A DNA stretch of 64,000 nt. Origin: Alphaproteobacteria bacterium. Lineage in GTDB: Bacteria > Pseudomonadota > Alphaproteobacteria > JASGCL01. The DNA is taken from NCBI GenBank assembly GCA_965203915.1, contig OZ241918.1:268613-332612 (forward strand), read 5' to 3'. Both the position numbers and the translations under genes were made by a program. Each line of letters opens with the position of its first letter. The stretch's first letter is position 1. The notes under the pieces are model-generated. The model did no database searches and had not been told where the DNA came from. It worked only from the letters and a program-made list of their open reading frames with translations. Positions 4,021 to 45,400 of this stretch are shown here, in pieces.

Positions 4021-4268
4021 AAAAAGACCCAAAAAACAAACGGCGGAATAACAACAAAAAACATAGTATTTTTATTTTTTGATGAGGGTGGCTTTATACC
4101 CCTTGTAATTTTTATATAGGATAACTATCTTAGGGTTGTTAAGGATGTGATACGGTGCTTGTTTGAGGCTTCTTTGGGCATGGTATTTGCAAATTAACAA
4201 AATGATAACCAAGTTAAGACAAATTATATTATAAAAAAAACGGAATAAAAATAATCAGGTATAAATAG

Positions 4269-14085: not shown

Positions 14086-14110
14086 TATCAATTCTTTCAC
14101 GATATAACAA

Positions 14111-15085
14111 TTAGGGTTTACCAATAATATATTTATTAATATTTTTTTGATGGTCAGCAAAATTGGTGGCAAACTCATGCCCGCCTTTGCCATTGGCAAC
14201 AAAATACAAATAGCTGTTTCGTTCGGGCCTGGCTATGGCGCGTAAGGTTTCTTTGCTAGGGCAGGCAATGGGCGTAATGGGCAAGCCGTAATTGGTGTAG
14301 GTGTTCCAAGGACTTTTTTTCTTGAGGTCTTTGATGTAAAGTTTGCGATTCAATTCGCCCAAACCATTGCTTAAACCATAAATCACGGTGGGGTCGGTTT
14401 CTAACCTCATTCCTTTTTTTAAACGGTTGATAAAAACGCCAGCCACCCGTGCTTTTTCGCTTTTGATAGCCGTTTCGCGTTCGACCAAACTGGCAAGGGT
14501 CAGGAACTCTTTTTGATTTTTGATGTAGAGACTGATGCTAGGATCCCGCAACGCCCAATTATTTTCCAATTCATCGTTCATCGCCTTGGCCATTTTATCA
14601 ATCAGGTCTTGTTTTTTTGTGCCGCGGCGATAGGCATAACTATTGGGTAGGAGGCTTCCCTCGGCTGGCAACTTGGCTATATTGCCAGTTAAATAGCGGG
14701 TGCGCTGCATTTCTTGCACAACTTTTTTGACCGTCCAACCTTCTATCAACACAAATACTTCTTCGATGGTGCGCCCCGCAACGATATTATCAAGCACCCG
14801 ATAGGCTGATACTTGACCATAAAATCGGTAGTCGCCCGTTTTCAGAAGATTCTGGTCGCCCTGCATATAAGCTAGGATCTTAAAACCGAGATTCGACCTG
14901 ATGACGCCATTGTTTTTTAAAATAGTCGCAACATTATCAAGCGTGGCACCGTTGGGGATAGAAACCTCTTTATCAACCCTTACATTGCCAAAAAAATAGC
15001 AGAGCAAAAAAACAAGCAGCGCGATGCTGGTTTGCAAAACAACCAACTTCCTAGAAAATAATGAAATTTTTTGCTTCATTGCCAA
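14111..15085 (-). CDS. mltG: Endolytic murein transglycosylase MltG (YceG family).
   Basis: N-terminal TM helix, YceG-like core, YLYFVANGKGGHEFATNFADHQKNI. Confidence 0.85.
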   Translation of the reverse strand: MAMKQKISLFSRKLVVLQTSIALLVFLLCYFFGNVRVDKEVSIPNGATLDNVATILKNNGVIRSNLGFKILAYMQGDQNLLKTGDYRFYGQVSAYRVLDNIVAGRTIEEVFVLIEGWTVKKVVQEMQRTRYLTGNIAKLPAEGSLLPNSYAYRRGTKKQDLIDKMAKAMNDELENNWALRDPSISLYIKNQKEFLTLASLVERETAIKSEKARVAGVFINRLKKGMRLETDPTVIYGLSNGLGELNRKLYIKDLKKKSPWNTYTNYGLPITPIACPSKETLRAIARPERNSYLYFVANGKGGHEFATNFADHQKNINKYIIGKP

Positions 15086-15132
15086 GCCATAGCAAGGATT
15101 CTTAACCTAAGCAATTTTTGCTTAATCCGTTA

Positions 15133-16395
15133 TTATACCCGCCCAAATATGACCGAGGCATTGGTGCCGCCAAAACCAAAGCTGTTCGACATGGCAAAAT
15201 TGACCTGCCTATCTTGGGCGACCTTGGCAACCAAATTTAAATCACAACCTTCGGATGGGTTATCCAAATTGATGGTTGGTGGCAAGGTGCCAGTTTCGAT
15301 AGCTTTCAAAGTGAAGATGGCCTCAATCGCGCCCGCCCCACCCAACAAATGCCCGGTGGCCGATTTGGTGGAAGACATGGCCAATTTGTAGGCATGGTCA
15401 GCAAATAATGACTTAACCGCCTTAAGCTCAATTTCGTCGCCCAAGGGGGTTGAGGTGCCATGGGCGTTGATGTAATCAATTTTTTCTTTGGCAAGGTTGC
15501 CCATGCTGAGGGCTTGGCGCATGGCGCGGAAACCACCGTTGCCATCGGGCGGTGGCGCGGTTAAATGGTGGGCGTCGCCCGACAAACCATAAGAAACCAC
15601 TTCGCCATAGATTTTGGCACCGCGTTTTTTGGCATGTTCATATTCTTCTAACACCATCATGCCCGAACCTTCACCCATGACAAAACCATCCCTATCTTTA
15701 TCCCACGGGCGCGATGCCTTTTCTGGGGTTTCGTTGTATTTGGTGGAAAGGGCGCGCGCCGAACAAAACCCCGCAATACCGATAGGGCAGATGGCGGCCT
15801 CCGCCCCGCCCGCCAACATAATATCGGCATAACCGTCGCGAATAAACCTCATCGAATCGCCAATGGCGTGGGTGCTGCTGGCGCAGGCGGTGGCAACCGC
15901 ATGGTTAGGCCCTTGCCAACCATATTTTATCGAAATAAAACCAGCCACCAAATTGACCAAATTGGCGGGAATAAAAAATGGGCTCAAACGCCGTGGACCT
16001 TTTTCTTTTACCTCTATCGAACCGCTTTCGATGCCTGGCAAACCACCGATGCCCGAACCAATCATCACCCCCGCCCGTTCGCGGGTGGCGGCGGGCAAAT
16101 CGAGCAAGCCAGCATCCTCCACCGCCATGCTGGCGGCGGCAAACCCATATTGGATGAAGGGGTCCATTTTTTTCTGTTCTTTGAATTCTATCCATTCGTT
16201 GGGGTCAAATTTGTTGTCGGCCTTGCCGCCGCGGGGAACCTCCCCCGCGATACGCGACGCCATGGATGAGGCGTCAAAACGGGTGATTTTACCAATACCC
16301 GATACGCCCTTTAATAATTTTTCCCACACATGGTCAACGCCAACCCCAAGTGGACTGACTATTCCCATACCTGTTACCACGACGCGTCTTGACAT
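15133..16395 (-). CDS. fabF: 3-oxoacyl-ACP synthase II.
   Basis: VVVTGMGIVSPLG; the active-site Cys in AVATACASSTHAIG; His-containing NAHGTSTPLGD and KSATGHLLGGAG motifs. Confidence 0.93.
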   Translation of the reverse strand: MSRRVVVTGMGIVSPLGVGVDHVWEKLLKGVSGIGKITRFDASSMASRIAGEVPRGGKADNKFDPNEWIEFKEQKKMDPFIQYGFAAASMAVEDAGLLDLPAATRERAGVMIGSGIGGLPGIESGSIEVKEKGPRRLSPFFIPANLVNLVAGFISIKYGWQGPNHAVATACASSTHAIGDSMRFIRDGYADIMLAGGAEAAICPIGIAGFCSARALSTKYNETPEKASRPWDKDRDGFVMGEGSGMMVLEEYEHAKKRGAKIYGEVVSYGLSGDAHHLTAPPPDGNGGFRAMRQALSMGNLAKEKIDYINAHGTSTPLGDEIELKAVKSLFADHAYKLAMSSTKSATGHLLGGAGAIEAIFTLKAIETGTLPPTINLDNPSEGCDLNLVAKVAQDRQVNFAMSNSFGFGGTNASVIFGRV

Positions 16396-16518
16396 AATAT
16401 TCTCTCAATCAATCATTCATTACTGGATGGTTATATTGTTGTTTTTAAATTTTTCGAACTATAATCTAAAACATGGCGAAAATCAATATAGTGGGGCAAT
16501 GCCCCTGATATAAAAAAA

Positions 16519-16556
16519 AACAACAACGGCACAAAATGCCGTTATTGTTTTTTTTT
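16519..16556 (-). terminator. Hairpin (aacggca...tgccgtt) flanked by A/T runs between acpP and fabF; an intrinsic terminator or attenuator downstream of acpP.
   Basis: Inverted repeat of about 7 bp followed by a T-run on the minus strand (an A-run on plus precedes it). Confidence 0.5.
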
Positions 16557-16576
16557 GAAAAAAATGAATAGCAGAA

Positions 16577-16813
16577 CTATTTAGCTTTTTCAGACAGCAA
16601 TGTAATTGCATCGCCAACCGTGGCAATTTTTTGCGCGGCTTCGTCAGGAATTTCGCAATTAAATTCTTCTTCAAAAGCGAAAACCAACTCAACAGTGTCA
16701 AGCGAATCGGCACCCAAATCGTCAATAAAGCGCGCGGTGGGAATCACCTTCGCTTCTTCGACGCCCAAATGATCGATAATAACTTTCTTAACACGACTTT
16801 CAATGTCACTCAT
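16577..16813 (-). CDS. acpP: Acyl carrier protein.
   Basis: [19 protein letters not shown] phosphopantetheine-attachment motif; 78 aa. Confidence 0.95.
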
Positions 16814-17077
16814 GATACGATACCTCTTGTGAAATAATAGTAATATGTTGGTTTGGCATGATAATAATTATTATAACAATTTATGTCATAACGACTATCA
16901 GTGGCCATTCTAAAAAAGCAACCAGCGATAGATTAGACCGCTTGCGGTGATTTTTCATAGAACACCTATTTAATACCCACCTTTAGGGCAAAAAGCAAGA
17001 AAAAAAACCTTATGAATTTTTGACGGTAATAAAAAAATATAATAAAAAAAAATTTTTCTATATTTTAATATTTTTTA

Positions 17078-19239: not shown

Positions 19240-19758
19240 ATGACCGATAAAAAATTACCCGCCGAAGCATCACCACCATCATCGCCCCAGTTGTCGCATG
19301 TAACCCCAAGCGGGAAGGCGGCGATGGTCGACGTATCGCAAAAACCCGAAACCGCCCGCATGGCGCGCGCCATGGCACGGGTGGTGATGAAACCCGAAAC
19401 CATTATCGCCATCAAAAATAATAATATAAAAAAGGGCGATGTTTTAACCGTTGCCAAATTGGCGGGCATCAACGGTGCCAAAAAAACATTCGACCTTATT
19501 CCATTGTGCCACCCTTTGGCTTTATCCTACATCGATGTTGATGCAATAATTGACGGCGACCAAGCGGTGGTGATTACCGCCATAACCAAAACATTTGGCC
19601 GCACGGGGGTAGAGATGGAGGCCATGACCGCGGTTAGCGTGGCCGCCCTCACCCTTTACGACATGGTAAAAGCCATCGACAAAACCGCCACCATCACCGA
19701 CATAAAATTGTTGGAAAAATCGGGCGGCAAGTCGGGGCATTCATTATATGAGCCCTAA
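19240..19758 (+). CDS. moaC: Cyclic pyranopterin monophosphate synthase MoaC.
   Basis: LSHVTPSGKAAMVDVSQKPETAR...KGDVLTVAKLAGINGAKKTFDLIPLCHPL...GVEMEAMTAVSVAALTLYDM. Confidence 0.9.
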   Translation: MTDKKLPAEASPPSSPQLSHVTPSGKAAMVDVSQKPETARMARAMARVVMKPETIIAIKNNNIKKGDVLTVAKLAGINGAKKTFDLIPLCHPLALSYIDVDAIIDGDQAVVITAITKTFGRTGVEMEAMTAVSVAALTLYDMVKAIDKTATITDIKLLEKSGGKSGHSLYEP

Positions 19759-19885
19759 CGCTGACGCTACTTGAGGGCGGGTTCTGCCCTAACGCTTCGT
19801 TGCTTCAGGGCGCATTATATTAAGCCCTATCGCTGACGCTACTTGCTAGGCGTTGCCTAGAACCAAGCTTTTACCGCTTCTGGGC
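19750..19885. repeat. Mosaic palindromic repeat element (module A, gccctaacgctgacgctacttgagggc-like, x3, plus module B, ctaggcgttgcctagaaccaagcttttaccgcttctgggctt). The moaC stop codon lies inside the element.
   Basis: Shares modules with the copies at 22655-22810, 24885-24990, 41497-41665, 45362-45400 and 56402-56720. Confidence 0.8.
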
Positions 19886-19940
19886 TTCGGGGGTAATTAT
19901 TTTATTGCTATCCTAGGACGAATCTTTTTATGGTTGGGGA

Positions 19941-20624
19941 ATGACGGGACAAAAACCACAAGCGGAAACAAAACCACAAGGGGAAGTGCAAACCAAGGCG
20001 CAAGGGGCGGGGGCGACCATCATCACCAGCTTGGATGGTTATCTTAGCTGGCTAAAGAAAATTCGTAGTGAAACCCCTTGGACAAAATCTGCATATCGTG
20101 GGGTGGGGTGGGGGGAAGACACCATAGAAAAATTTAAAAACCTGCCAAAATGTTTGTGGAATGGCAAGGGATATGAAGAAAAATATAACTTGCTACAGAT
20201 GCAAAAAGATTTGTTGGCGGAATTTCGTATGGCGGGTCATAGCAAAGACAAAAAACCTGATTTAGAATTATTGGCGGATATTCAACATGTCGAACCCCGC
20301 ACCTGCTTTATTGATTATAGCTTAAATCCCTTGGTGGCGTTGTATTTTGCCTGCCTTGATGATAAAACCAATGGCTTGGTGATAGCTAATGATATTGATG
20401 CAGAATATTTTCGTAATGTGACTATAGATGATATTGATAAAAAAATAGATGATTTTTTTATTGAGAAAGCAAAAGTAGCAGACAATATCGTGTCGCCAGA
20501 ATATCAAAGCAATAAAAAATATTCTTTAGTGAAAGCTTTGCCATGGGTTTGGCAATTACCCACCGCCGACCACCCACCACCCACGCATGATAGCGCAACA
20601 GGCGATAGTGTTGTTTGGTCATAA
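19941..20624 (+). CDS. FRG-domain protein (hypothetical).
   Basis: LADIQHVEPRTCFIDYSLNPLVALYFAC resembles the FRG-domain core (QHyGlPTrLLDwT...AlyFA). The ORF starts just after the repeat element. Confidence 0.5.
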   Translation: MTGQKPQAETKPQGEVQTKAQGAGATIITSLDGYLSWLKKIRSETPWTKSAYRGVGWGEDTIEKFKNLPKCLWNGKGYEEKYNLLQMQKDLLAEFRMAGHSKDKKPDLELLADIQHVEPRTCFIDYSLNPLVALYFACLDDKTNGLVIANDIDAEYFRNVTIDDIDKKIDDFFIEKAKVADNIVSPEYQSNKKYSLVKALPWVWQLPTADHPPPTHDSATGDSVVWS

Positions 20625-21639
20625 CATACCAGATTATGATGAATATTGTTTTATTAACCAAGATAAGAAAAAAGTAATAAGCAATCAATTGGAAGAATTA
20701 TTTGCTATCGATGGCAATAGGCTATTTCCTGATTTTGATGGTCGTGCTAAATATATTGTTGTTATCAAAGACGCCAAATATTATTTTAAACAGGCTAATA
20801 AATTTCTTGAACAAATGGCTTATGAAGAAGCCATCAAGGATTATGATAGGGCGATAGAATTGAACCCGCAATCTGCCAATATCTATAGCAATCGTGGCGT
20901 GGCAAAGAGAAACCTTGGTCATTATGAAGAAGCCATCAAGGATTATGACAAGGCGATAGAATTGAACCCGCAATCTACCGCTGTCTATGTTGTTAATCGT
21001 GGTGATGCGAAGGGCAAACTTGGTCGTCACAAAGAAGCCATCAAGGATTTTGAAGAAGCAATAAGAATAGACCCGCAATATGCCGACGCTTATATTAATC
21101 GTGGCGTGGCGAAGGGCAACCTTGGTCATCACGCAGAAGCCATCAAGGATTATGATGAGGCGATAGAATTAAACCCGCAATATGCCGAAGTCTATGTTAA
21201 TCGTGGCAATATGAAGGACGAACTTGGTAGTTATGACCAAGCCATCAAAGATTATGATAGGGCGATAGAAATAAATCCGCAATATGCCGAAGCCTATATT
21301 AATCGTGCCACTGTGAAGGGTAAACTTGGTCATTATGAAGAAGTCCTCAAAGACTTGGATAAGGCAATAGAAATAAACCCGCAAGATGCCGAAGCTCATT
21401 ATAATCGTGGCTTGGCGAAGGTTGGTCTTAAGCTATATGAAGAAGCCATCAAAGATTATGATAGGGCGATAGAATCGAACCCGCAATTTGCCATGGCCTA
21501 TAATAATCGTGGCTTGCTAAAACAGGATTTGGCGAAGCAGGAAAGGGCGAAGGGTAATGAAGAGCGGGCGCAGGAATTAGGAATATCCGCCGAAGAGGAT
21601 CTTAAAAAACATCGCGAATTGCTCAATGAGCAAAGATAA
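20587..21639 (+). CDS. Tetratricopeptide-repeat protein. About 8 TPR units are encoded by near-identical 102-bp tandem repeats.
   Basis: Repeated AIKDYDRAIELNPQYAEAYINRGVAKGNLGHYEE units; the nucleotide-level repeats are almost identical. Confidence 0.8.
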   Translation: MIAQQAIVLFGHNIPDYDEYCFINQDKKKVISNQLEELFAIDGNRLFPDFDGRAKYIVVIKDAKYYFKQANKFLEQMAYEEAIKDYDRAIELNPQSANIYSNRGVAKRNLGHYEEAIKDYDKAIELNPQSTAVYVVNRGDAKGKLGRHKEAIKDFEEAIRIDPQYADAYINRGVAKGNLGHHAEAIKDYDEAIELNPQYAEVYVNRGNMKDELGSYDQAIKDYDRAIEINPQYAEAYINRATVKGKLGHYEEVLKDLDKAIEINPQDAEAHYNRGLAKVGLKLYEEAIKDYDRAIESNPQFAMAYNNRGLLKQDLAKQERAKGNEERAQELGISAEEDLKKHRELLNEQR

Positions 21640-21659: not shown

Positions 21660-22165
21660 AAACAAAACCAACTTCCCTTGTGTACAAGGGAGGAAGAAAA
21701 TTAACGACACGAAGTGGAGTATAATTTTCAGGTAGGTTAGCGGGGGTTGGCGATGTAAAATATGGCAGGTGAATTTATCAAACGCGTGTTGGCTTACGGC
21801 AAAAATATGGTTGGGTTTGTTCCATTTTTTCTTTTTGCGGGCGGGGAAGGAAGCTAAGCATACTTCCCTTGTGTTACAAGGGAGGAAGAAAATTAACGAC
21901 ACGAAGTGGAGTATAATTTTCAGGTAGGTTAGCGGGGGTTGGCGATGTTAAATATGGCAGGTGAATTTATCAAACGGGGGTTGGCTTACGGCAAAAATAT
22001 GGTTGGGTTTGTTTCACCAAACGGTGTCTAACCTACCCGAAAAATATGGTCGGCTTTGCCTCCCTATTTTTCTCCCTCCCTTGTATCACAAGGGAGGCTG
22101 GCTAGCCCCTCCCTGTTTTTCTTCTTCCCTTATGTCGCAAGGGAGGCTTGACATAAATCCACTCC
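21660..22165. repeat. Non-coding repeat block: a 194-bp direct tandem duplication (about 21664-21857 and 21858-22050) plus four copies of the hairpin motif TCCCTTGTnnnACAAGGGAGG.
   Basis: cttcccttgtgtacaagggaggaagaaaattaacgacacgaagtggagtataattttcaggtaggttagcgggggttggcgatgt... occurs twice. The palindrome also recurs at about 22072 and about 22122. It lies between the convergent TPR gene and mfd. Confidence 0.85.
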
Positions 22166-22196: not shown

Positions 22197-25100
22197 CTAG
22201 CAGAAAGCCTTAAGCAGGGTTTTGCTGGTGGCGACCATTTGGTCGCGGTTGCGGTTGGCGAAATGAAAAATAATTTTTTCGGTGGTGGTTTTGCCGTTTG
22301 TTTCTTTTATCATGCGTGCCTTTTTTTCTTTTAACAATGTTAACAATTTATCGGGGTTTTTGACTTGGTTGTTGTAAAACATGACGCTGGTGCTGTGGGG
22401 CGATATTTTCAATTCGGTCACCCCCGCGGCGTAACATAATTGTTTTAATTCAATCACCGCCAACAGGTTTTTTGTTTCGGGTGGTATAACGCCAAAACGG
22501 TCGGTCAATGATTCCTCGATATTTTTTAAATTTTTTTCATCCACCGATTCCGACAATTCTTTGTATAATGCCAACCGCACCATGTCGTCGGGAATATAAT
22601 CTTCGGGTATGGCAACCGCCAAGGGCAAAACAATATGCGGCGACCAATCACGCAAGATGTTTGTCCTATCGCTGACGCTACTTGAGGGCAAAATATTGGC
22701 CCTATCGCTAACGCTGCTTGCTAGGCTTCGCCTAGAACCAGACTTTACAGCTTCTAGGCTTGAGGGGACATTATCATTCGCCCCACCTTTTTCCCCTACC
22801 GCTTCGCTGCTCGAGGGCGCGCGGGTGATTTCCAAATCTTTGGCGGATAATTTGGCAATTTCTGCCATCACCATTTTTTGGTATAGTTCAATGCCGACCT
22901 CCCTCACATGGCCCGATTGTTCTTCGCCCAACAAATTGCCCGCCCCCCGCATATCCAGGTCGTGGCTGGCAAGCAAAAACCCCGCCCCCAAGTGGCTTAA
23001 ATCATCCAACAATTCTAATCTTTTTTTGGCATTTTTTGTTATGACTTTATCTTTGGGGTAAGTGATAAAACAATAACCCTGGCGGTTGCCACGCCCCACC
23101 CGCCCGCGTAATTGATACAATTGCGCCAACCCAAATTGGTCGCCGTGAAAAATAATCATGGTGTTGACATTGGGCAAATCCAAACCGCTTTCAATGATAT
23201 TGGTCGACAACAACCCATGATATTTCCCGTCGGCAAAATCGGTCATGGCTTGGTCAATATCCTCGCTCGGCATTTGGCCATGGGCCATGGTGATATTCAT
23301 ATCGGGAATAAGTTCGTGCAATGTTTTGTGAATGGTCGCCAATTGGTTAACCCGCGGTGCCACCAAAAAAATTTGCCCGCCGCGCGCCATTTCGTTGGCG
23401 ATAACCCGTTTCAAATCAAACGGGTTTAAATGCGCCACCATGGTTTTAATCGGCAACCGCCCAGGCGGCGGCGTGGCGATAAGCGACAGATCCTTGATAC
23501 CATGCAACGACAATTGCAAACTGCGCGGTATGGGGGTGGCACTCATCGATAACAAATGAACATTTTTTGCCAATTCGCGGGCGCGTTCTTTTTGTTTAAC
23601 GCCGAAGTGATGTTCCTCATCCACCACCACCAGTCCCAAATTTTTTGGCGCGATGGAACGGTGCAACAAACCATGGGTGCCGATAACAATATCAACCCCC
23701 CCCCGCGACAATTCTTCTTTGGTTTTTTTAATATCGCTGGTGGTAACAAAACGCGACATTTGTTTAATACGCACCGCAAAATTTTTAAAACGTTTCACAA
23801 AATGTTGATAATGTTGCCGCGCCAACAATGTCGTGGGAGTGATAACCAAAACCTGTTTGCCCGCCATCACCGCGCAAAAACTGGCGCGCAACGCAACCTC
23901 GGTCTTGCCAAAACCAACATCGCCGCAAATCAATCGGTCCATCGGGCGTTCCTGCGCCAAATCATTTTTGACGATATTGATGGCTTGCTCCTGGTCGCGC
24001 GTTTCGGGGTATGGAAACAATGACGCAAATTCTAAATAATCGCTGTCTTTGGGTATTAAAGATTCCGCCTTAATCGTTTGGCGCAAAGCGGCGTTGCGCG
24101 CCAACTTGGCCGCCAATTCTTTTATCCGCGCGCGGGTTTTGGCCACGCGGGCTTGCCAATCGGCCGAACCCAATTTATCCAATATATTATCCAACGGCGG
24201 CGCGGGGTCGGGCAAATCGCCGTAACGCTGTAACCTATCCAAATTTTCTATCGGCAAATATAATTTGTCGCCACCGCGATAACTTAACGACACGCAATCG
24301 TGAATTTGCCCGCCCGCGGTAATGGGTTTTAACCCCAAAAATTGTCCAATGCCATAATCCAAATGGGTAATCAAATCGCCTTTTTTTAAAGTGGTAATAT
24401 CCTTGATTAATTTTTCGATGGTCGATTTGCTGTTTTTGCCAGTAAGGGGCGGCGCCCATTGAAATTCCACCTGAAAAATATCGTGGTCGGTAATAATATC
24501 AATATTATTATTTTCGCCGCGCCAACTTTCGCCATGTTGCAATGGCAACACCGCCAGCAAAATTTTTTTTACGCCATCTTCTATTACCTCATCTATATTT
24601 TTTTTGTTTTCTGGGGTCGACCTATTGGCTTCCAAAACAATCACGGGCGGCAATGTATCATCGGTCAATAATTTTTGCCAACGGTGCAGGCTGGCGATGT
24701 TATGCGCGGCTATCAAAATACTATGCGGTGATTTTTTTATCATCGCCAACAATTTTTCTTGGAATGTTTCGTCGGGCGCGTCGGCGTTATTTTTTGCACC
24801 CAACACGGCGTTGTTCACCGCCCGTCGCGCCTGAACCACGTGGGTGGTAATAAATTCTTGCCAATTGGGCATGTTATTTTCTCCCATCGCTTCGCCGCTT
24901 GCTAGGCTTCGCCTAGAACCAGACTTTACAGCTTCTAGGCTTGGGGGCATGTTATTTCCCCCCATCGCTTCACTGCTTAAGGGTGCGGTATGGGACGAGG
25001 CAAGGCGACCAGCGGGCAGGGGAACGACGGGCATTGAGGTAGCGGATGTAAGATGGGCAGCCTCATTCATTTTTTCATGGATGCAAAAAAAATCTTTTAT

Positions 25101-26237
25101 TTTTTGTTGCCAGGATTCGACCGACAAAGAAGATTTTTCAGGCGGCAACGGCGGATAAATAAAATGGTTGGGATTTTTTTTATGTTCTTGTTTTTTAATG
25201 GCAAATTCTTCTTGTCGCTCCTCATAATCCTTTTGCTTGATGGCAAATTGTTGGCTTATTTCGGTGGCGGCGCGCCCGTGAAAAAAGAACAAAAAGTCGT
25301 CATGCAAATAATCAAAAAAATAACAACATGAATCAAAAAACAAAGGATAATAATATTGCAGATCGTTTTGGGTTAATACATTGTTAGAAAAAATTTCGCC
25401 AGGCAAAGACAAAGAAAATTCTTCGCGCATGTTGTTTAAAAATTTTTTCTGGCTTGCGGTATCAAGCGGTATTTCCGATATAGGCAAAATATTAACCACC
25501 TCTATTTTTTCCAAATTTTTTAACCGCCGTTGGTCCAGCGGCGAAAAATAATTTATCTGTTCTATTTTATCGCCAAAGAAATCTATCCGAATGGGCATGG
25601 CTTGCCCTTGGTTGGACGATAAATTCATGATGGGGAAAATATCAATAATCCCGCCGTGGCGCACCATGTCGCCGAATGTTCGAACCTCCGCCGTGGTTTC
25701 ATAACCCATTGTTATTAAATTTTTTAACAATGCTGCCATGTTGTAATCCTCACCCGTTTTTATTGACAATATTTTTTGTGCAAAAAAGGAAGGCGGCGCA
25801 ATAGGGGCCAGCAACGCAGCGTAGCAAGTGACAACCGCGAAGTTAGCGTGGTTTTGTTGTAATGCGAATAAAGTCAGGGCGCGTTCGCGGATAATATCGG
25901 GGTTGTCGTCAAACGGCAGGAAAGAAAAAATTGTTAGATGCGGGCGATGAAACAACAACCATTGTTTTTGCATCAACATTTCCTGTTGGTCGCGACAAAC
26001 AATGACCAATTTTTTTTTATTTGTTTCGTTGCTGGCCAAACGCGCCAACAACCCCGCCATGGCCAACGGTGGGGGAGATGCCCCGCCAAGCGTTTGATTA
26101 TGAGCGTCCCCAAATTCCTCCACCAACCCCGAAACCAAAGTAATGTCATGCGAATTATCTTTGCCAATTTTTTTTCTAAAATCTTGGAAATGCTGGTCGA
26201 TGATATTTTCAGCCGTGAAAAAAATATTGCGGGTCAT
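22197..26237 (-). CDS. mfd: Transcription-repair coupling factor Mfd (1346 aa), carrying two in-frame insertions of the palindromic repeat element.
   Basis: UvrB-homology N-terminus, RecG-like helicase motifs (GDVGFGKTEVALRA, DEEHHFGV, SATPIPRSL), TRG motif and a C-terminal TRCF domain. The inserts encode ...PSLEAVKSGSRRSLASGEAMG... and ...SSLEAVKSGSRRSLASSVSDR.... Confidence 0.92.
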   Translation of the reverse strand: MTRNIFFTAENIIDQHFQDFRKKIGKDNSHDITLVSGLVEEFGDAHNQTLGGASPPPLAMAGLLARLASNETNKKKLVIVCRDQQEMLMQKQWLLFHRPHLTIFSFLPFDDNPDIIRERALTLFALQQNHANFAVVTCYAALLAPIAPPSFFAQKILSIKTGEDYNMAALLKNLITMGYETTAEVRTFGDMVRHGGIIDIFPIMNLSSNQGQAMPIRIDFFGDKIEQINYFSPLDQRRLKNLEKIEVVNILPISEIPLDTASQKKFLNNMREEFSLSLPGEIFSNNVLTQNDLQYYYPLFFDSCCYFFDYLHDDFLFFFHGRAATEISQQFAIKQKDYEERQEEFAIKKQEHKKNPNHFIYPPLPPEKSSLSVESWQQKIKDFFCIHEKMNEAAHLTSATSMPVVPLPAGRLASSHTAPLSSEAMGGNNMPPSLEAVKSGSRRSLASGEAMGENNMPNWQEFITTHVVQARRAVNNAVLGAKNNADAPDETFQEKLLAMIKKSPHSILIAAHNIASLHRWQKLLTDDTLPPVIVLEANRSTPENKKNIDEVIEDGVKKILLAVLPLQHGESWRGENNNIDIITDHDIFQVEFQWAPPLTGKNSKSTIEKLIKDITTLKKGDLITHLDYGIGQFLGLKPITAGGQIHDCVSLSYRGGDKLYLPIENLDRLQRYGDLPDPAPPLDNILDKLGSADWQARVAKTRARIKELAAKLARNAALRQTIKAESLIPKDSDYLEFASLFPYPETRDQEQAINIVKNDLAQERPMDRLICGDVGFGKTEVALRASFCAVMAGKQVLVITPTTLLARQHYQHFVKRFKNFAVRIKQMSRFVTTSDIKKTKEELSRGGVDIVIGTHGLLHRSIAPKNLGLVVVDEEHHFGVKQKERARELAKNVHLLSMSATPIPRSLQLSLHGIKDLSLIATPPPGRLPIKTMVAHLNPFDLKRVIANEMARGGQIFLVAPRVNQLATIHKTLHELIPDMNITMAHGQMPSEDIDQAMTDFADGKYHGLLSTNIIESGLDLPNVNTMIIFHGDQFGLAQLYQLRGRVGRGNRQGYCFITYPKDKVITKNAKKRLELLDDLSHLGAGFLLASHDLDMRGAGNLLGEEQSGHVREVGIELYQKMVMAEIAKLSAKDLEITRAPSSSEAVGEKGGANDNVPSSLEAVKSGSRRSLASSVSDRANILPSSSVSDRTNILRDWSPHIVLPLAVAIPEDYIPDDMVRLALYKELSESVDEKNLKNIEESLTDRFGVIPPETKNLLAVIELKQLCYAAGVTELKISPHSTSVMFYNNQVKNPDKLLTLLKEKKARMIKETNGKTTTEKIIFHFANRNRDQMVATSKTLLKAFC
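22655..22810. repeat. Palindromic repeat element copy (module A x2 + module B) inserted in-frame in the mfd CDS.
   Basis: cctatcgctgacgctacttgagggc...ccctatcgctaacgctgcttgctaggcttcgcctagaaccagactttacagcttctaggcttgagggg. The plus-strand ORF 22609-23061 is the opposite-strand reading of this element. Confidence 0.85.
24885..24990. repeat. Second palindromic repeat element copy (module B + partial module A) in-frame in the mfd CDS.
   Basis: ccgcttgctaggcttcgcctagaaccagactttacagcttctaggcttggggg...atcgcttcactgcttaagggtgc. Confidence 0.85.
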
Positions 26238-27000: not shown

Positions 27001-27244
27001 GGGTGATTAAGGTTAAGCTAGTCGATAGGTTTTTTTGAGTGGTAAGCCATGATAATGGCATGGGTAAATTGCCTTACGGCATATTGTCAAACCCTGTTAT
27101 TTATAATTTTTATATTATCAAAAATAGCCGCGCGAGTCAAAAGAAAAATCCCTGGCTGCGTAGGATGAAAGGTAATAAAAAAGGCACCTGTTTAAACAAC
27201 AGATGCCTACAAAAAATAAATTTTTTGTTAATGAAAAAAATGAA

Positions 27245-27421
27245 TTACATTTTCATCATTTTTTCGCATTTTTTCATCATTTTTTGGTCAGCGGCACTCA
27301 TGGATGCTTTATCCATTTTCATCATTTTGTCGCAATTTGCTTTGTTGACTTCGCCTTCGCTCGCCATAACAGCCGAGGTAAGAAGCAAGCCAGTGATCAT
27401 GGCGAAAGATAATTTTTTCAT
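27245..27421 (-). CDS. Small secreted Met/Lys-rich two-cysteine peptide, array copy 1 (58 aa: signal peptide + about 38-aa mature peptide).
   Basis: MKKLSFAMITGLLLTSAVMA|SEGEVNKANCDKMMKMDKASMSAADQKMMKKCEKMMKM; AAGGA SD 7 nt upstream; own hairpin terminator downstream. Confidence 0.65.
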   Translation of the reverse strand: MKKLSFAMITGLLLTSAVMASEGEVNKANCDKMMKMDKASMSAADQKMMKKCEKMMKM

Positions 27422-27630
27422 GATTGTTTCCTTTTCTATATATAAATTAGGATGTTGCGATAGGCGAAATTGCCAATCAATCCCCCTATAGGCTAATTTT
27501 AATTTTTTTGCAATATAATTTTGAATCGTTTGCTTGTTTTCCTATAGTATATTTTTGGTTCATAGTATTGGCGAATCTTGCGGTGGTTTGTTCGGGGCAA
27601 GGTTGGTCGGCGCGCCAAAAAATGGAGCAA

Positions 27631-27664
27631 TAAAAAAGGCATCTGTTTAGAAAAACAGATGCCT
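27631..27664 (-). terminator. Rho-independent terminator of peptide-gene copy 2 (perfect 12-bp stem aggcatctgttt/aaacagatgcct followed by a T-run on the minus strand).
   Basis: Identical copies at about 28088-28121 and 28545-28578. Variants at about 27176-27208 (copy 1), 28911-28947 and 29378-29413. Confidence 0.75.
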
Positions 27665-27701
27665 TCAAAAAATAAACTTTTTTGTTAATCAAAAAAACGA
27701 A

Positions 27702-27878
27702 TTACATTTTCATCATTTTTTCGCATTTTTTCATCATTTTTTGGTCAGCGGCACTCATGGATGCTTTATCCATTTTCATCATTTTGTCGCAATTTGCTTT
27801 GTTGACTTCGCCTTCGCTCGCCATAACAGCCGAGGTAAGAAGCAAGCCAGTGATCATGGCGAAAGATAATTTTTTCAT
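27702..27878 (-). CDS. Small secreted Met/Lys-rich two-cysteine peptide, array copy 2 (identical to copy 1; the 457-bp unit is repeated).
   Basis: Identical 457-bp unit (ORF-track duplicates 27682-27948 and 27943-28149 match copies 1 and 3). Confidence 0.65.
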   Translation of the reverse strand: MKKLSFAMITGLLLTSAVMASEGEVNKANCDKMMKMDKASMSAADQKMMKKCEKMMKM

Positions 27879-28158
27879 GATTGTTTCCTTTTCTATATAT
27901 AAATTAGGATGTTGCGATAGGCGAAATTGCCAATCAATCCCCCTATAGGCTAATTTTAATTTTTTTGCAATATAATTTTGAATCGTTTGCTTGTTTTCCT
28001 ATAGTATATTTTTGGTTCATAGTATTGGCGAATCTTGCGGTGGTTTGTTCGGGGCAAGGTTGGTCGGCGCGCCAAAAAATGGAGCAATAAAAAAGGCATC
28101 TGTTTAGAAAAACAGATGCCTTCAAAAAATAAACTTTTTTGTTAATCAAAAAAACGAA

Positions 28159-28335
28159 TTACATTTTCATCATTTTTTCGCATTTTTTCATCATTTTTTG
28201 GTCAGCGGCACTCATGGATGCTTTATCCATTTTCATCATTTTGTCGCAATTTGCTTTGTTGACTTCGCCTTCGCTCGCCATAACAGCCGAGGTAAGAAGC
28301 AAGCCAGTGATCATGGCGAAAGATAATTTTTTCAT
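28159..28335 (-). CDS. Small secreted Met/Lys-rich two-cysteine peptide, array copy 3 (identical).
   Basis: Identical 457-bp unit. Confidence 0.65.
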   Translation of the reverse strand: MKKLSFAMITGLLLTSAVMASEGEVNKANCDKMMKMDKASMSAADQKMMKKCEKMMKM

Positions 28336-28615
28336 GATTGTTTCCTTTTCTATATATAAATTAGGATGTTGCGATAGGCGAAATTGCCAATCAATCCCCC
28401 TATAGGCTAATTTTAATTTTTTTGCAATATAATTTTGAATCGTTTGCTTGTTTTCCTATAGTATATTTTTGGTTCATAGTATTGGCGAATCTTGCGGTGG
28501 TTTGTTCGGGGCAAGGTTGGTCGGCGCGCCAAAAAATGGAGCAATAAAAAAGGCATCTGTTTAGAAAAACAGATGCCTTCAAAAAATAAACTTTTTTGTT
28601 AATCAAAAAAACGAA

Positions 28616-28774
28616 TTACATTTTTTGGCATTTTGCCATTGTTTTTTGTTGCGCAGGAGTCAATGAGGCTTTGTCCATTTTCATCAACTTATCGCATTTG
28701 GCGTTCATGTTGCCAGCAGAAGCGCTAGCGGCAAGAACCAAAGCAATAGCGATCATGAGAGATATTTTTTTCAT
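28616..28774 (-). CDS. Small secreted two-cysteine peptide, diverged array copy 4 (52 aa).
   Basis: MKKISLMIAIALVLAASASA|GNMNAKCDKLMKMDKASLTPAQQKTMAKCQKM; own terminator hairpin at about 28911-28947 downstream of copy 5. Confidence 0.6.
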   Translation of the reverse strand: MKKISLMIAIALVLAASASAGNMNAKCDKLMKMDKASLTPAQQKTMAKCQKM

Positions 28775-29007
28775 GAGGTATACTCCTTAGTTTTGTTAAG
28801 ATTGTTACGACCGACGGGATTGCCAGGCGTAGGAATGATGTAAAGCAATTGTTGAGGCGTAGCAACTTGTATTATCGCTAACTTGCTACCAATTATAAAA
28901 AATGGCTAAATAAAAAAGACATCTGTTTTAATAAAAAACAGATGTCTTTAAAAATAAATTTTTTTTATTGTGCGGGCGTCAATAGTGTCTTACCCATTTG
29001 TGTCAGT

Positions 29008-29238
29008 CTATTGCATGTGATGTCGATGTCGATGTTGGTGTCGCCAGCGGCAAGAATCATGGCAACAACAATCACGGTCAATCATTTCTTCGCATTTTTC
29101 TATTGTTTTTTGTTGTGCGGGCGTTAATAAATCTTCGTCCATTTTCATTAACCTATCGCATTGGGCTTTCATGTTGTCAGCCGAAGCATTGGCGACAAGA
29201 ACCAAAGCAATAGCTGGCATGAGAGATAATTTTTTCAT
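29008..29238 (-). CDS. Small secreted two-cysteine peptide, diverged copy 5. The C-terminus reads through into a degenerate remnant of another copy (Cys/His-rich tail).
   Basis: MKKLSLMPAIALVLVANASA|DNMKAQCDRLMKMDEDLLTPAQQKTIEKCEEM followed by IDRDCCCHDSCRWRHQHRHRHHMQ; the 28960-29100 region is a decayed copy. Confidence 0.5.
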   Translation of the reverse strand: MKKLSLMPAIALVLVANASADNMKAQCDRLMKMDEDLLTPAQQKTIEKCEEMIDRDCCCHDSCRWRHQHRHRHHMQ

Positions 29239-29445
29239 GAGGTATATTTCTTATAGTTTTGCTAAGATTATGACGAATGACAAGTTTATCATTCGGATAA
29301 GTTATGCAAGTTAATTTTTGAAGCACAGCAAGTTATGCTATCACTGATTTACTAACCATTATAAAATATTGGAAAATAAAAAAGGCATCTGTTTTAAGAA
29401 AAAACAGATGCCTTCAAAAATAAACTTTTTGCTAGAAGTTAAATA

Positions 29446-39087: not shown

Positions 39088-41505
39088 ATGAGCGCCGATA
39101 AAAAATCACCCGATAAAAAAATGCGCGACGCCAGCGGTCATAACCCCGCTCACAATCCTGCTTATAACCATGGGCGCGGGCAAGCGGTGGAGGGCGACAT
39201 GGACGCGCCCAAAAATGCCACCGAACAATTACGGATGGAGGCCATAGCCTATCACAAGCAAAAACCAGCGGGAAAATTGCGGGTGGTGGCGTCGAAACCA
39301 TTGAACAGCCAGCGCGATCTGTCCTTGGCCTATTCGCCAGGGGTCGCCGCCGCTTGCGAGGAAATTGTGAAAGATCCCCTGAATGTTTCTGACATGACGG
39401 CGCGTGGTAATTTGGTGGCGGTTATATCGAACGGCACGGCGGTGTTGGGTTTGGGCGATATTGGCCCCCTGGCCAGCAAACCCGTGATGGAGGGGAAGGC
39501 GGTGTTGTTTAAAAAATTTGCCGACCTTGATGTTTTTGATATTGAGATAGAAGAGAAAGACCCAGAAAAATTAATCACAATTATCAAAAGCCTAGAGCCA
39601 ACATTTGGCGGCATCAACCTGGAGGATATCAAGGCCCCCGAATGTTTTGTTATCGAACAACGGTTAAAAAAGGAAATGAAAATTCCGGTGTTCCATGACG
39701 ACCAACATGGCACCGCCATCATCGCGGGGGCGGCGATAAAAAATGGTCTGGAAGTAATGAAGAAAGATATAGGGTCGGTGAAAATTGTGGCGTCGGGCGC
39801 GGGGGCGGCGGCGTTATCTTGTTTGCATTTTTTGATAAGCCTGGGGGCGAAGAAAGAAAATATTTGGGTATGCGATAAAGAAGGTTTGGTTTGGGCGGGG
39901 CGTAACAAGGGGATGGATGAGTTCAAACAACAATTTGCCCGCGCCGATGTGAAGGAAGATAGAAACTTGGCATCGGTTATCAAGGACGCCGATATTTTCT
40001 TGGGGTTGTCTTCAGGCAAGGTGGTAACGGGCGATATGGTGAAATCGATGGCGAAAAACCCGATGATATTGGCGTTGGCCAATCCCGAACCCGAAATTCG
40101 CCCCGAAGAAATAGAAAAAGTTCGCCAAGACGCCATTATCTGCACGGGGCGGTCGGATTATCCCAACCAGGTCAATAATGTTCTCTGTTTTCCATTTTTG
40201 TTTCGCGGCGCGTTGGATGTTGGGGCGACAGAAATTAACGAACCCATGAAGCAAGCCGCGTCGATGGCCATTGCCGAATTGGCCAAGCAAGCGGTCGAAG
40301 AAAAAACATTACGCGCCTATGGCTTGACCGAATTATCTTTCGGTAAAAATTATATCATTCCCAAACCGTTGGATGAGAGGTTGATTGTTGCGGTTTCGTC
40401 GGCAGTGGCGGAGGCGGCCATGAAGACGGGCGTTGCGACCCGCCCCATCGCCGACATAAAACAATATCGCGAACAATTGGCGGGCATGACCACCCGCACC
40501 CACCAAATTATGCGCCCCATCAATGTTGCGGCACGCCAGTCGGACAAGCGGATAGTTTACGCCGAGGGGGAAAACCCACGGATATTATCCGCCCTGCCGA
40601 TTATTATTCAAGAAAATTTTGCGCGCCCGATATTGGTGGGCCGCCCCAAGGTGATAGAAGATCGGATCAAAAAATTAAATTTGAATTTAACCTTGGGCAA
40701 AGACGTAGAGATTTGCGACCCCGAGCAAGACGATAGGTTCCATGCCTATTGGACGGAATATCATCAGCATTTGGGGCGGTCAGGCGTGTCGCCCGAATAT
40801 GCCAAAACGATGGTGCGGACGTCGAACACCGTTATTGGGTCGTTGATGGTTAAACGCGGCGAAGCCGATGGTTTGATATGCGGCACCATTGGGGTTTTTC
40901 ATCGCCATTTAAAACATGTTCGCAATATTTTGGGGGTGAATGAAAAATACAAAGACATGCACAGTCTTTATATGTTGGTGCTGGAAACATTTGGTCAACC
41001 CACCCTGCCGCTGTTTTTTACCGACACCCATGTTTCGCACAACCCATGCGAAGAGGAATTGGAAGAAATGACATTGATGGCGACCGATGTGATGAAATTG
41101 TTTGGCATAACGCCAAAGGTTGCGTTGCTTTCCCATTCTAACTTTGGTTCGTCTGAATCGGATTCGGCGAAAAAAATGCGCCGTGCGGTGGCGCGTTTGA
41201 AAAAATCTTGCCAATTTGAGGTCGAGGGCGAAATGCACCCCGACACCGCGCTTGATGAAACCATTCGCGCCAATTTTTTGATGGATAATCGATTAAAGGG
41301 CGCGGCGAATTTGATGGTTTTCCCCAACCTGGATGCTGCCAATATTTGCTACAACATGGTGAAGATGGTGGCGGCCGAGGGGATTTCGACAGGACCAATT
41401 TTGATGGGTTGTAACCATGTGGCGCATATCATGACGCCCGCCGCCACCACCCGCGGCATCATCAACATGACGGCCTTCACCGCCGCCGAAGCGGCCAACC
41501 GCTAG
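39088..41505 (+). CDS. maeB: NADP-dependent malic enzyme (malic enzyme + phosphotransacetylase-like domain; MaeB type). The stop codon lies inside a palindromic repeat element.
   Basis: Malic enzyme motifs (VISNGTAVLGLGDIGPLASKPVMEGK, VASGAGAAALSC) followed by the PTA-like C-terminal half; 805 aa. Confidence 0.88.
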   Translation: MSADKKSPDKKMRDASGHNPAHNPAYNHGRGQAVEGDMDAPKNATEQLRMEAIAYHKQKPAGKLRVVASKPLNSQRDLSLAYSPGVAAACEEIVKDPLNVSDMTARGNLVAVISNGTAVLGLGDIGPLASKPVMEGKAVLFKKFADLDVFDIEIEEKDPEKLITIIKSLEPTFGGINLEDIKAPECFVIEQRLKKEMKIPVFHDDQHGTAIIAGAAIKNGLEVMKKDIGSVKIVASGAGAAALSCLHFLISLGAKKENIWVCDKEGLVWAGRNKGMDEFKQQFARADVKEDRNLASVIKDADIFLGLSSGKVVTGDMVKSMAKNPMILALANPEPEIRPEEIEKVRQDAIICTGRSDYPNQVNNVLCFPFLFRGALDVGATEINEPMKQAASMAIAELAKQAVEEKTLRAYGLTELSFGKNYIIPKPLDERLIVAVSSAVAEAAMKTGVATRPIADIKQYREQLAGMTTRTHQIMRPINVAARQSDKRIVYAEGENPRILSALPIIIQENFARPILVGRPKVIEDRIKKLNLNLTLGKDVEICDPEQDDRFHAYWTEYHQHLGRSGVSPEYAKTMVRTSNTVIGSLMVKRGEADGLICGTIGVFHRHLKHVRNILGVNEKYKDMHSLYMLVLETFGQPTLPLFFTDTHVSHNPCEEELEEMTLMATDVMKLFGITPKVALLSHSNFGSSESDSAKKMRRAVARLKKSCQFEVEGEMHPDTALDETIRANFLMDNRLKGAANLMVFPNLDAANICYNMVKMVAAEGISTGPILMGCNHVAHIMTPAATTRGIINMTAFTAAEAANR

Positions 41506-41665
41506 GCTTCGCCTAGGTGCTGCGCACCGCAACTTTCTAGGCTGCGCCTAGAACCAAGCTTGTTATTTTGGAGTCGAGGGCGAAATGCACCCCGACACCG
41601 TGCTTGATGAAAGGCTTTTTCTCTCTCCATCGCCAAACAGTTCGGTTCTAGGGCTTGCCCTAGCT
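41497..41665. repeat. Repeat cluster at the maeB 3' end. Forward module B (ctaggcttcgcctag...ctaggctgcgcctagaaccaagcttg) and an inverted module copy (ggttctagggcttgccctag) flank a duplicated 45-bp fragment of maeB.
   Basis: 41568-41612 (ggagtcgagggcgaaatgcaccccgacaccgtgcttgatgaaa) is near-identical to maeB 41216-41260. Confidence 0.8.
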
Positions 41666-45366: not shown

Positions 45367-45400
45367 AAAACCTGACTTTACCTCTTCTAGGCTTGTGCCT
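45362..45400. repeat. Partial module-B repeat (atagaaaacctgactttacctcttctaggcttg) overlapping the tpiA stop codon.
   Basis: Aligns to cctagaaccagactttacagcttctaggcttg from the mfd copies. Confidence 0.6.

Follow-up and report, generated by a model that had tools for sequence, protein, structure and literature searches.

REP sequences are imperfect GC-rich palindromes of 20–40 nt with a conserved GTAG head, and the ToxI antitoxin of type III toxin–antitoxin systems consists of tandem 36-nt RNA repeats. Among small intragenic repeats, in-frame fusions have been documented for RPE, ERIC, BOX and QMITE1 (PMC10969869; PMC1779305), the Rickettsia palindromic element (RPE) being an interspersed unit of 100–150 bp (PMC1779305). 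Here we describe a new example of this known phenomenon, hairpin repeats lying in frame inside a protein gene. The gene is mfd, and the stretch of DNA analyzed (hereafter the window, 64 kb) belongs to a deep-branching alphaproteobacterium that has not been cultured and has a genome consisting of one contig of 1.63 Mb with ~45% GC. The repeats are built from short modules, A, A', B, and C. They probably constitute a hairpin-forming interspersed repeat family that assembles into unstable mosaics, the two arrays within mfd being tolerated as passenger linker peptides.

The original prediction likened these repeats to RPEs, selfish DNA tolerated inside proteins, and the comparison holds in part. 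As with RPEs, the repeats are short and non-autonomous, occur in multiple copies both between genes and in frame within conserved housekeeping proteins, occupy positions that the fold tolerates, show lineage-specific proliferation with no known transposase, and include a 78-nt unit present in one genome and absent from another. However, RPEs are single units that encode a conserved peptide and affect dozens of genes, whereas the modules here measure 26–46 nt and form direct or tandem mosaics with a 36-nt period. As a whole, these mosaics are not unusually stable in their fold, and they are biased toward gene 3' ends; in the DNA examined they affect only mfd, the one gene hit internally, and the tail of MoaC in a close relative, and their host lies outside the Rickettsiales.

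Like REPs and BIMEs, the repeats join short hairpins to other motifs in mosaics that sit at gene 3' ends; their copy number varies between strains, and in the window they face uniformly on the leading strand, as expected for mobilization of single-stranded DNA. But REPs have long GC-rich stems and the GTAG head, whereas module A has a 17-nt loop on a stem of 5–6 bp; REPs, by definition extragenic, alternate in orientation within BIMEs, whereas the units here are direct and two arrays are intragenic; and REPs are mobilized by RAYT, for which no gene was found in the <10% of the genome searched. MITEs and similar repeats (ERIC, BOX, Correia, QMITE1 of Coxiella, and the Anabaena MITEs) are likewise small and non-autonomous, with occasional open in-frame fusions (PMC10969869), but the modules here have neither terminal inverted repeats nor a known parent IS, and their sole candidate for a target duplication is the CTTG around module B. 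Finally, the resemblance to type III toxin–antitoxin systems lies in tandem arrays between genes, with as many as five units of 36 nt, which in the relative adjoin variable islands of defense genes. No ToxN/AbiQ-type toxin gene follows these arrays, however, their neighbors being moaC, trpE, and a methyltransferase gene with a T5orf172 domain; moreover, the arrays come after housekeeping genes, single units as well as mosaics occur commonly, and there is no sequence similarity.

Two repeat arrays within an intact mfd gene

The mfd gene, encoding the transcription-repair coupling factor, occupies positions 22197–26237 on the reverse strand. As predicted, it is an intact ORF of 1346 amino acids that remains open through two repeat arrays. 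The protein aligns with Escherichia coli Mfd (6x26/2eyq) at E = 1e-170 with conserved helicase motifs; the Pfam set of Mfd homologs comprises UvrB_inter, CarD_TRCF_RID, DEAD/ResIII, Helicase_C, and TRCF (PF17757, PF02559, PF00270, PF00271, and PF03461). All catalytic motifs are intact in the alignments both to E. coli Mfd and to the close relative, and comparison with the latter reveals purifying selection (dN/dS 0.18). Of the ~200 residues by which the protein exceeds the typical length, only ~100 are repeat-derived.

The repeat modules lie on the forward strand, antisense to mfd. Modules A and A' are 26–27 nt long and pair GCCCT with AGGGC around the conserved loop, A' having the sequence CCCCATCGCTTCACTGCTTAAGGG. 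Module B, of ~42 nt, consists of CTAGGC-NNN-GCCTAG (6-bp stem, 3-nt loop) followed by AACCARRCTT, and C is the third module type found in the mosaics. In its 46-nt form, module B is present in the window in exactly two identical copies (22717–22762 and 24898–24943), a repeat that arose in none of 100 shuffles; no third copy was found in the window at up to three mismatches. Module B does contain the nested perfect palindromes attributed to it (CTAGGC-TTC-GCCTAG and GCCTAGAA-N14-TTCTAGGC). The idea of a single palindromic element inserted twice has to be given up: the arrays are mosaics of separable 26–46-nt modules in direct repeat, and whole composites fold no more stably than shuffled sequences (z = -0.2 to -1.0), with only local hairpins of 5–8 bp. 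Composites span 104–156 nt and differ in make-up at each locus. Their modules are in direct orientation, frequently with a 36-nt period, and arrays expand and contract in 36-nt units; within an array, all A/A' units are direct repeats on one strand. Terminal inverted repeats were not found, the ends of the arrays being A or A' in the same orientation. In three copies, B lies within A bounded by CTTG...CTTG (or CTTC), which could represent a target-site duplication or, equally, microhomology at a recombination junction.

The C-terminal array (22663–22818, forward strand, antisense to mfd) comprises A (22663–22689), a 9-nt spacer, the left part of A (22699–22720), B (22717–22762), the right part of A, a spacer, and A' (22793–22818), and encodes Mfd residues about 1139–1195 (RAPSSSEAVGEKGGANDNVPSSLEAVKSGSRRSLASSVSDRANILPSSSVSDRTNIL). 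The N-terminal array (24881–24984, forward strand, antisense to mfd) comprises the left part of A' (24881–24901), B (24898–24943), the right part of A' (GGGGC), a spacer, and a further A' (24959–24984), and encodes about PLSSEAMGGNNMPPSLEAVKSGSRRSLASGEAMGENNMP. Module A as originally quoted matches the C-terminal site alone, with one mismatch (22663–22689), whereas the N-terminal site has A'. Two of the six frames across the repeat composite are open, and mfd reads the only antisense one; this sole stop-free antisense frame, together with unit lengths of 36, 42, and 78 nt, keeps the mfd ORF open. Conceptual translation bears out the claim that both copies are read in one frame and specify the same peptide twice: the copies of module B yield PSSLEAVKSGSRRSLASS and PPSLEAVKSGSRRSLASG, and both arrays encode ...SLEAVKSGSRRSLAS....

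Both arrays occupy positions at which other Mfd proteins have nothing. The C-terminal array stands, in the alignment, in place of residues 987–1002 of E. coli Mfd, within the D6–D7 linker, and none of 38 Mfd homologs has residues there; the N-terminal array is located in the region before D3, where the same 38 homologs have none at 415–462. In the AlphaFold2 model of full-length Mfd, the two insert regions (residues 1134–1193 for the C-terminal array and 388–490 for the N-terminal array) appear as coil with pLDDT <50, flanked by confidently modeled domains. The ortholog alignment that had been proposed as a check thus agrees with insertion at fold-tolerant sites, and alignment and model support the view that the arrays would be read as floppy linker peptides in insertion-tolerant positions. 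Protein-level constraint on the insert codons is relaxed, with dN/dS of 0.57 versus 0.15 in the remainder of mfd, the value for the inserts resting on small counts (7 synonymous and 14 nonsynonymous changes). We infer that the inserts are translated as passenger linker peptides, tolerated rather than useful to the protein.

Other housekeeping proteins of this genome tolerate long disordered insertions too: Lon has one of ~95 amino acids, and ClpX is extended at its N terminus by ~100 amino acids. These are rich in K, D, and E and unrelated to the repeat modules.

Copies at the 3' ends of other genes

The same element had been reported at five other places in the window. At four other loci we find mosaics assembled from A, A', C, and B-like modules, but no further copy of the 46-nt B at up to three mismatches. 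Downstream from moaC, an array (19752–19890, forward strand) comprises A, A', and then an A interrupted by a B-like module, and the moaC TAA stop codon (19756–19758) falls within module A. Downstream from maeB, a mosaic (41502–41663, forward strand) comprises a B-type hairpin that overlaps the maeB TAG stop, a module C in inverse orientation, another B core (41537–41561), and the hairpin CTAGGGCTTGCCCTAG (41648–41663). A fragment 89% identical to the right-hand part of B (45369–45395, forward strand) lies 3 nt past the stop of the triosephosphate isomerase gene. The mosaic downstream from trpE (56405–56716, forward strand) is composed of A (56405–56431), the hairpin CTAGGGCAAGCCCTAG, A' (56535–56560), and a 58-nt tandem duplication with module C. 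The copies outside mfd are found at gene 3' ends, sense to the upstream gene, whose stop codon is supplied by three of them; intergenic copies lie 0–32 nt from the upstream stop or stand behind an array that overlaps it. With the mfd arrays counted, A/A' copies are spread over six loci in the window. In the ~170 kb of this lineage available (~45 window genes plus ~110 kb of the relative), internal insertions are seen only in mfd.

At eight loci, A or B modules are sense-oriented and overlap the upstream stop or lie just past it (0–32 nt beyond the stop, or terminating an array that overlaps it). Such placement would suit functional nucleic-acid hairpins selected at gene ends, either 3'-UTR stability or processing signals or protein-binding sites, with the mfd copies as by-products or regulatory antisense features. 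The conservation of the hairpins fits this explanation as well. The stem of A has a covariation score of 0.212 versus 0.094 in shuffles, a value reached by none of 500 shuffles, with compensatory changes from CG to GC in three sequences and from GC to UA in one; its 17-nt loop is near-invariant across genomes of 45–72% GC; and a copy of B downstream from groEL has a compensatory change at the stem end (ATAGGC...GCCTAT). We nevertheless consider selected hairpins an unlikely explanation. In relatives with 58%–71% identical proteins the corresponding gene ends are free of modules, which these genes can therefore do without, and between two genomes that are ~94% identical each locus varies in the number and layout of its copies. 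Furthermore, no Rfam family matches, fold stability is no better than for shuffled sequence, and canonical terminators adjoin the modules as separate structures. Module B was itself considered as an intrinsic terminator and rejected, as it has no U-tract.

Repeat differences between two closely related genomes

The close relative has ~94% nucleotide identity to the window and an Mfd that is 93% identical. At the N-terminal site of mfd, both DNA and protein alignments show that it is without a 78-nt unit (24882–24959, forward strand; 26 codons) consisting of an A' interrupted by B, plus spacer, the exact placement of which can shift by a few bases owing to the repetitive flanks. Direct repeats of 27 nt flank this difference, which may reflect either gain in the window or loss in the relative. 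The C-terminal array is present in frame in the relative, with indels of 15, 9, and 3 nt. Downstream from moaC, the relative has the arrangement A-A'-A-A'-B, unlike the window, and its MoaC carries a tail of 20 amino acids (20 codons) for which A/A' is read in the second open frame. After trpE, one 36-nt A unit in the window corresponds to five in tandem in the relative; 24 nt that follow the triosephosphate isomerase gene in the window have no counterpart in the relative; and the B modules after maeB in the window are absent in the relative. Since all six window loci differ between the two genomes, the repeats are dynamic. We regard this as a clean natural case, outside Rickettsia, of repeat DNA incorporated into an essential-type protein, accompanied by an empty-site comparison with a close relative and by structural evidence for a disordered-linker location; it illustrates how protein length can grow via noncoding repeats.

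Assemblers may be led astray by repeats, and the contig analyzed is metagenome-derived; an assembly or sequencing artifact, or else an mfd pseudogene, might be suspected on these grounds. We find this scarcely credible. The independent assembly of the relative keeps the C-terminal array in frame, which makes a sequencing artifact very improbable and bears out the predicted frame on independent sequence, and the intact catalytic motifs and the dN/dS of 0.18 speak against a pseudogene. A further explanation dispenses with mobility: the mfd inserts would be ordinary low-complexity linker growth by local tandem duplication, resembling the intergenic repeats through gene conversion or chance. Against this, the identity with the mfd inserts is at the DNA level and extends to noncoding loci dispersed as far as 34 kb away, as well as to other genomes; in addition, the relative reads the same modules in a different frame in its MoaC. 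The tandem units with their 36-nt period are compatible with local growth, the 27-nt direct repeats around the 78-nt difference would permit slippage, and the Lon and ClpX insertions show that disordered segments are tolerated in the same genome, although their different composition sets them apart from the modules. Altogether, we regard growth without mobility as distinctly improbable.

The account that we favor, of interspersed hairpin repeats, is as follows. The A/A', B, and C modules build direct-oriented mosaics, mostly at or just past the stop codons of housekeeping genes, and these gain and lose units of 34–38 nt, slippage or unequal recombination among the repeats being the likeliest cause. 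Modules may fuse at short shared sequences, as suggested by B inside A between two CTTG repeats. New copies would most likely derive from other genomic copies, either through a trans-acting enzyme that recognizes the hairpins or through gene conversion. The repeats would be selfish DNA. As for points that sit less comfortably with a mobile element, only one gene has internal insertions, and the evidence for target-site duplications is equivocal. The sense placement at 3' ends, the compensated stem of A, and its near-invariant loop are also what a functional RNA or DNA hairpin would present.

Distribution and catalog searches

Among 185,579 species genomes (GTDB species representatives), the B motif turned up in the relative alone, and it is absent from JGI metagenomes. 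Three single 16-nt matches in viral contigs have no similarity beyond the pattern and were treated as chance. No copy was found in ~52 kb of syntenic DNA from relatives whose Mfd or MutS is 58%–71% identical; this and the single species genome with the B motif argue for a recent, lineage-specific expansion. As far as these genome collections indicate, module B does not extend beyond this species-level lineage. True homology with RPE-1 to RPE-10, by inheritance or transfer from Rickettsiales, would account for in-frame linker copies alongside intergenic ones in an alphaproteobacterial host (PMC1779305). It is nonetheless very improbable: RPE units of 100–150 bp (PMC1779305) stand against 26–46-nt modules in direct mosaics, no other species representative has the B motif although the set is expected to include Rickettsia, and the nearest named MutS homologs (at most 45% identity) belong to Rhodospirillales and Sneathiella, not Rickettsiales.

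Searches of Rfam with the window and the high-GC loci, run with gathering and with E-value thresholds, returned no relevant family; the sole match overlapping an array, RAGATH-33, scored 27.7 bits (gathering score 120.4) and was rejected. No plasmid or phage matched the arrays in BLAST, and a full-text literature search with the module sequences found nothing. As to the suggestion of a potentially new RPE-like family, module A is not lineage-specific, its 27-mer occurring in unrelated high-GC contigs.

At the protein level, a HMMER search with the 57-residue insert peptide against 1.84 billion representative proteins gave a single weak match to an unrelated repeat protein (P0109), in a set of 50%-identity representatives where insert-bearing members may be hidden. 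The two open-frame peptides, concatenated and searched against a 5.8-billion-protein index, had 0 matches, a search that also missed its positive control (P0001, local E = 1e-13). Neither the 64-kb window nor the ~47 kb of annotated sequence available for the relative (<10% of the genome) yielded a transposase, RAYT, or IS-like gene. The ANDN in the insert peptide led us to consider a tmRNA origin, and a tRNA-like origin was considered for module A; both were dropped, as ARAGORN and Rfam found nothing.

Module A has a wider distribution, occurring almost unchanged in unrelated contigs of 61%–72% GC and in a viral contig. Among metagenomes the A pattern has 14 matches, eight of which we attribute to chance, in Leu-rich coding sequence that probably specifies signal peptides. 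A tentative and admittedly doubtful interpretation is that module A is an undescribed, horizontally mobile structured motif (loop A-Y-CGCTGACGCTACTTG), common to the 45% GC alphaproteobacterium, several unrelated bacteria of 61%–72% GC, and a viral contig; it would be recognized in trans by an enzyme acting on single-stranded DNA or RNA, multiply in units of ~36 nt, and be absorbable into proteins. Its conservation across phyla marks a small structured motif that is absent from the catalogs searched, and identifying its recognizer could reveal a new mobilization system or a regulatory hairpin. All repeat copies in the window face one way, on the strand that is leading as judged by GC skew.

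Repeat arrays within the mfd coding sequence

The mfd gene (22197..26237, minus strand) encodes 1346 aa and is the single long ORF of its region. ORF analysis and translation confirm that it stays open through two repeat copies, as stated in the original prediction. Homologs of this Mfd carry UvrB_inter, CarD_TRCF_RID, DEAD, Helicase_C and TRCF domains; the alignment to E. coli Mfd structures has E = 1e-170, and all helicase motifs are intact. The repeats are mosaics of separable modules: A (GCCCTAnCGCTGACGCTACTTGAGGGC, 27 nt), its 26-nt variant A' (GCCCTAACGCTTCGTTGCTTCAGGGC), B (CTAGGC-NNN-GCCTAG, then AACCARRCTT...) and C (AAGTTGCGGTGCGCAGCACC). A and A' share the stem GCCCT/AGGGC, enclosing a loop of ~17 nt, and the nested perfect palindromes described for B are present in the sequence. 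Whole arrays fold with no extra stability relative to shuffled sequence (z from -0.2 to -1.0), and thus the term "palindromic" holds only for local hairpins of 5-8 bp. The tetranucleotide CTAG is ~4-fold underrepresented across the whole window given its base composition (57 observed, 245 expected), with 21 of the 57 occurrences falling inside the repeat loci, which total 991 bp.

Module B (46 nt) has exactly two copies, at 22717-22762 and 24898-24943, and both are read in one mfd frame, giving PSSLEAVKSGSRRSLASS and PPSLEAVKSGSRRSLASG. The proposal that the same element recurs elsewhere in the window holds for related mosaics, at four loci, but not for B itself, of which there is no further copy with up to three mismatches (0 expected by chance). 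The C-terminal array (22663-22818) consists of A, a spacer, A interrupted by B, a spacer and A'; the N-terminal array (24881-24984) consists of A' interrupted by B, a spacer and A'. In three copies, a B lying inside A has CTTG at either side. Unit lengths within mfd are 36, 42 and 78 nt, each a multiple of three. Relative to mfd the repeats are antisense, on the + strand; two of the six frames across the composite are free of stops, and mfd reads the sole open antisense one. Repeats account for ~100 of the roughly 200 extra Mfd residues, the remainder being other expansions.

In a 40-sequence alignment, with the close relative set aside, residues 415-462 and 1141-1191 have no residue opposite in any of 38 homologs. 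An AlphaFold2 model of residues 147-1346 (mean pLDDT 72.5) falls below 50 in two long segments, 388-490 and 1134-1193 in full-length numbering, which hold the arrays and are flanked by confidently modeled domains. The C-terminal array takes the place of E. coli Mfd residues 987-1002, which form the flexible D6-D7 linker. Elsewhere in the window, lon (4269-6995) has a ~95-aa low-complexity insertion rich in K/D/E/A/G, and clpX (2341-4020) a low-complexity N-terminal extension of ~100 aa. The genome thus tolerates, in housekeeping proteins, disordered additions that have no relation to the repeat modules.

Probable turnover of the repeats at gene ends

The closest Mfd (P0001, 1324 aa, 93% identical) is that of CBDHFT01, a MAG labeled "Alphaproteobacteria bacterium" that matches the window at ~94% DNA identity. 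There the C-terminal array is present and in frame, with indels of 15, 9 and 3 nt, and the N-terminal site is shorter by exactly 78 nt (26 codons), keeping a lone A'. The initial finding is real, far exceeds chance, and is unlikely to be an artefact. Between the two genomes, dN/dS of mfd is 0.18 overall, 0.57 for insert codons (small counts) and 0.15 for the rest.

Every repeat locus outside mfd differs as well. After moaC (19752-19890), whose TAA stop lies inside module A, the window reads A-A'-A(B), B interrupting the last A, versus A-A'-A-A'-B in the relative; MoaC terminates within A in the window and extends 20 codons into A/A' in the relative, in the other open frame (...ALSLTLLEGRLCPNASLP). 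After maeB (41502-41663), whose TAG stop lies inside a B hairpin, B modules are found in the window only. The related mosaic at 45369-45395 starts 3 nt past the stop of the triosephosphate isomerase gene, and downstream of this gene the window is longer by 24 nt. The trpE mosaic (56405-56716, 4 nt past the stop) has one A unit in the window versus five tandem 36-nt units in the relative. Between genes, the array period is 34, 36 or 38 nt; given the related mosaics at separate loci, purely local tandem duplication is an unlikely origin. No transposase-like gene was found in the window. All of its A cores lie on the + strand. Cumulative GC skew climbs throughout, suggesting that the + strand is the leading one.

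We favor, as the best-supported and probable reading, that short hairpin repeats at gene ends form a dynamic family, which has twice settled in Mfd linkers as translated passenger sequence. Such repeats would colonize gene ends, would twice have ended up in tolerant, disordered Mfd linkers in the sole stop-free antisense frame, and would stay there as passengers, while recombination or slippage between them would add and remove units.

A 58-nt tandem duplication containing module C (98% identical copies) lies at 56584-56702, and the module C region has an inverted copy after maeB, 15 kb distant, at 41502-41535 (34 nt, 97% complementary). A 40-nt stretch of maeB coding sequence (41221-41260) recurs with 97.5% identity at 41573-41612, past the B modules in which the gene now stops; this duplication hints at a rearrangement of the maeB 3' end. 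Gene content variable between window and relative adjoins repeat arrays: FRG-domain and TPR proteins (window 19941-21639) versus GmrSD/HNH and an EcoRI-like methylase (L001 of the relative, 14109-16851); a T5orf172-containing N6_N4 methyltransferase (L024, 2110-3977), without counterpart at window 56402-56771; and an AT-rich insert with a 112-aa ORF (L024, 18742-19430) versus window 41506-41663. The arrays may mark hotspots of island integration. The 102-nt tandem repeats at 20784-21500 proved to be ordinary 34-aa TPR repeats (ORF 20587..21639; Pfam TPR_1, E = 1.6e-67).

Distribution of the modules and comparison with known families

The genome to which the window belongs is a contig of 1,632,298 bp. 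Among 185,579 species-representative genomes, the B motif (CTAGGCNNNGCCTAGAACCARRCTT) matched a single one, CBDHFT01, at six sites, and it had no match in JGI metagenomes. In ~52 kb of syntenic DNA from remoter relatives (Mfd 58% or MutS 66-71% identical) there are zero copies of A, A', B or C, so the expansion appears recent and restricted to this one species-level lineage. At the non-mfd B sites of the relative and the intergenic loci of the window, the modules are always in sense orientation and overlap the stop of the upstream gene, lie 0-32 nt past it, or end a stop-overlapping array; groEL, tldD and a gene for an acyl-CoA dehydrogenase are among the genes concerned.

A metagenome scan with the module A core gave 14 loci, eight of them apparently chance matches in Leu-rich coding sequence. 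The other six are in genomes of 61-72% GC, where the module is frequently repeated in tandem with a unit of 34-38 nt: L009 (4381-4467; L010 is identical in sequence), L016 (1170-1231), L017 (561-587), L020 (5158-5215) and L021 (551-648), the last with two copies identical in 27/27 nt to window 56405-56431. A viral contig (L023) has module A at 4252-4272 and ~4590-4610, within the 5' parts of small ORFs. Module A, found in such unrelated contigs, is thus not lineage-specific. In 16 distinct copies the 17-nt loop of A hardly varies, and its stem changes are compensatory: at one pair, 11 sequences have CG and 3 have GC; at another, 13 have GC and 1 has UA. The covariation score (0.212) compares with 0.094 for shuffles, none of 500 being as high. 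The covarying stem and conserved loop of A, and the invariably sense orientation of the modules at stop codons, speak for the main rival, that the hairpins are functional 3'-end signals in RNA or DNA, which we consider possible but rather doubtful. No consistent gene partner of module A was found across loci. The module is missing from the window's close phylogenetic relatives, which makes horizontal spread its simplest explanation, with a conserved function as the alternative. Its cross-phylum occurrence is the most interesting loose end of this analysis.

The repeats had no match in Rfam or in plasmid or phage records, and full-text literature searches did not find the module sequences. By definition, RPEs are repeats of 100-150 bp that are dispersed through Rickettsia DNA and numerous in coding as well as intergenic regions (PMC1779305). 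The proposed RPE-like character is partly right as an analogy of behavior rather than as proof of family membership. Compared by description, the repeats differ in size, modularity, direct/tandem arrangement, host and number of genes hit; true homology is unlikely. In the features tested they also depart from REP/BIME elements, MITEs and type III antitoxin arrays. Small in-frame repeats within genes are themselves a known phenomenon, with fusions described for ERIC, BOX, QMITE1 and Anabaena MITEs (PMC10969869).

Further repeats

In the stretch 27211-29430, three tandem copies of a 457-nt unit (98% identity) precede others that have diverged further; every copy contains the hairpin AAGGCATCTGTTTAGAAAAACAGATGCCTT and small ORFs without Pfam match, and the region is partly common to the relative (L001, 8621-9051). 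Immediately past the end of mfd (21683-22100) lies a second repeat family, unrelated to the modules, with a 142-nt direct repeat (97% identity) and inverted arms of 58-68 nt around CCTCCCTTG...CAAGGGAGG hairpins. In the relative this family is found downstream of two groEL copies (L005, 5593-6170; L006, 3105-3182).
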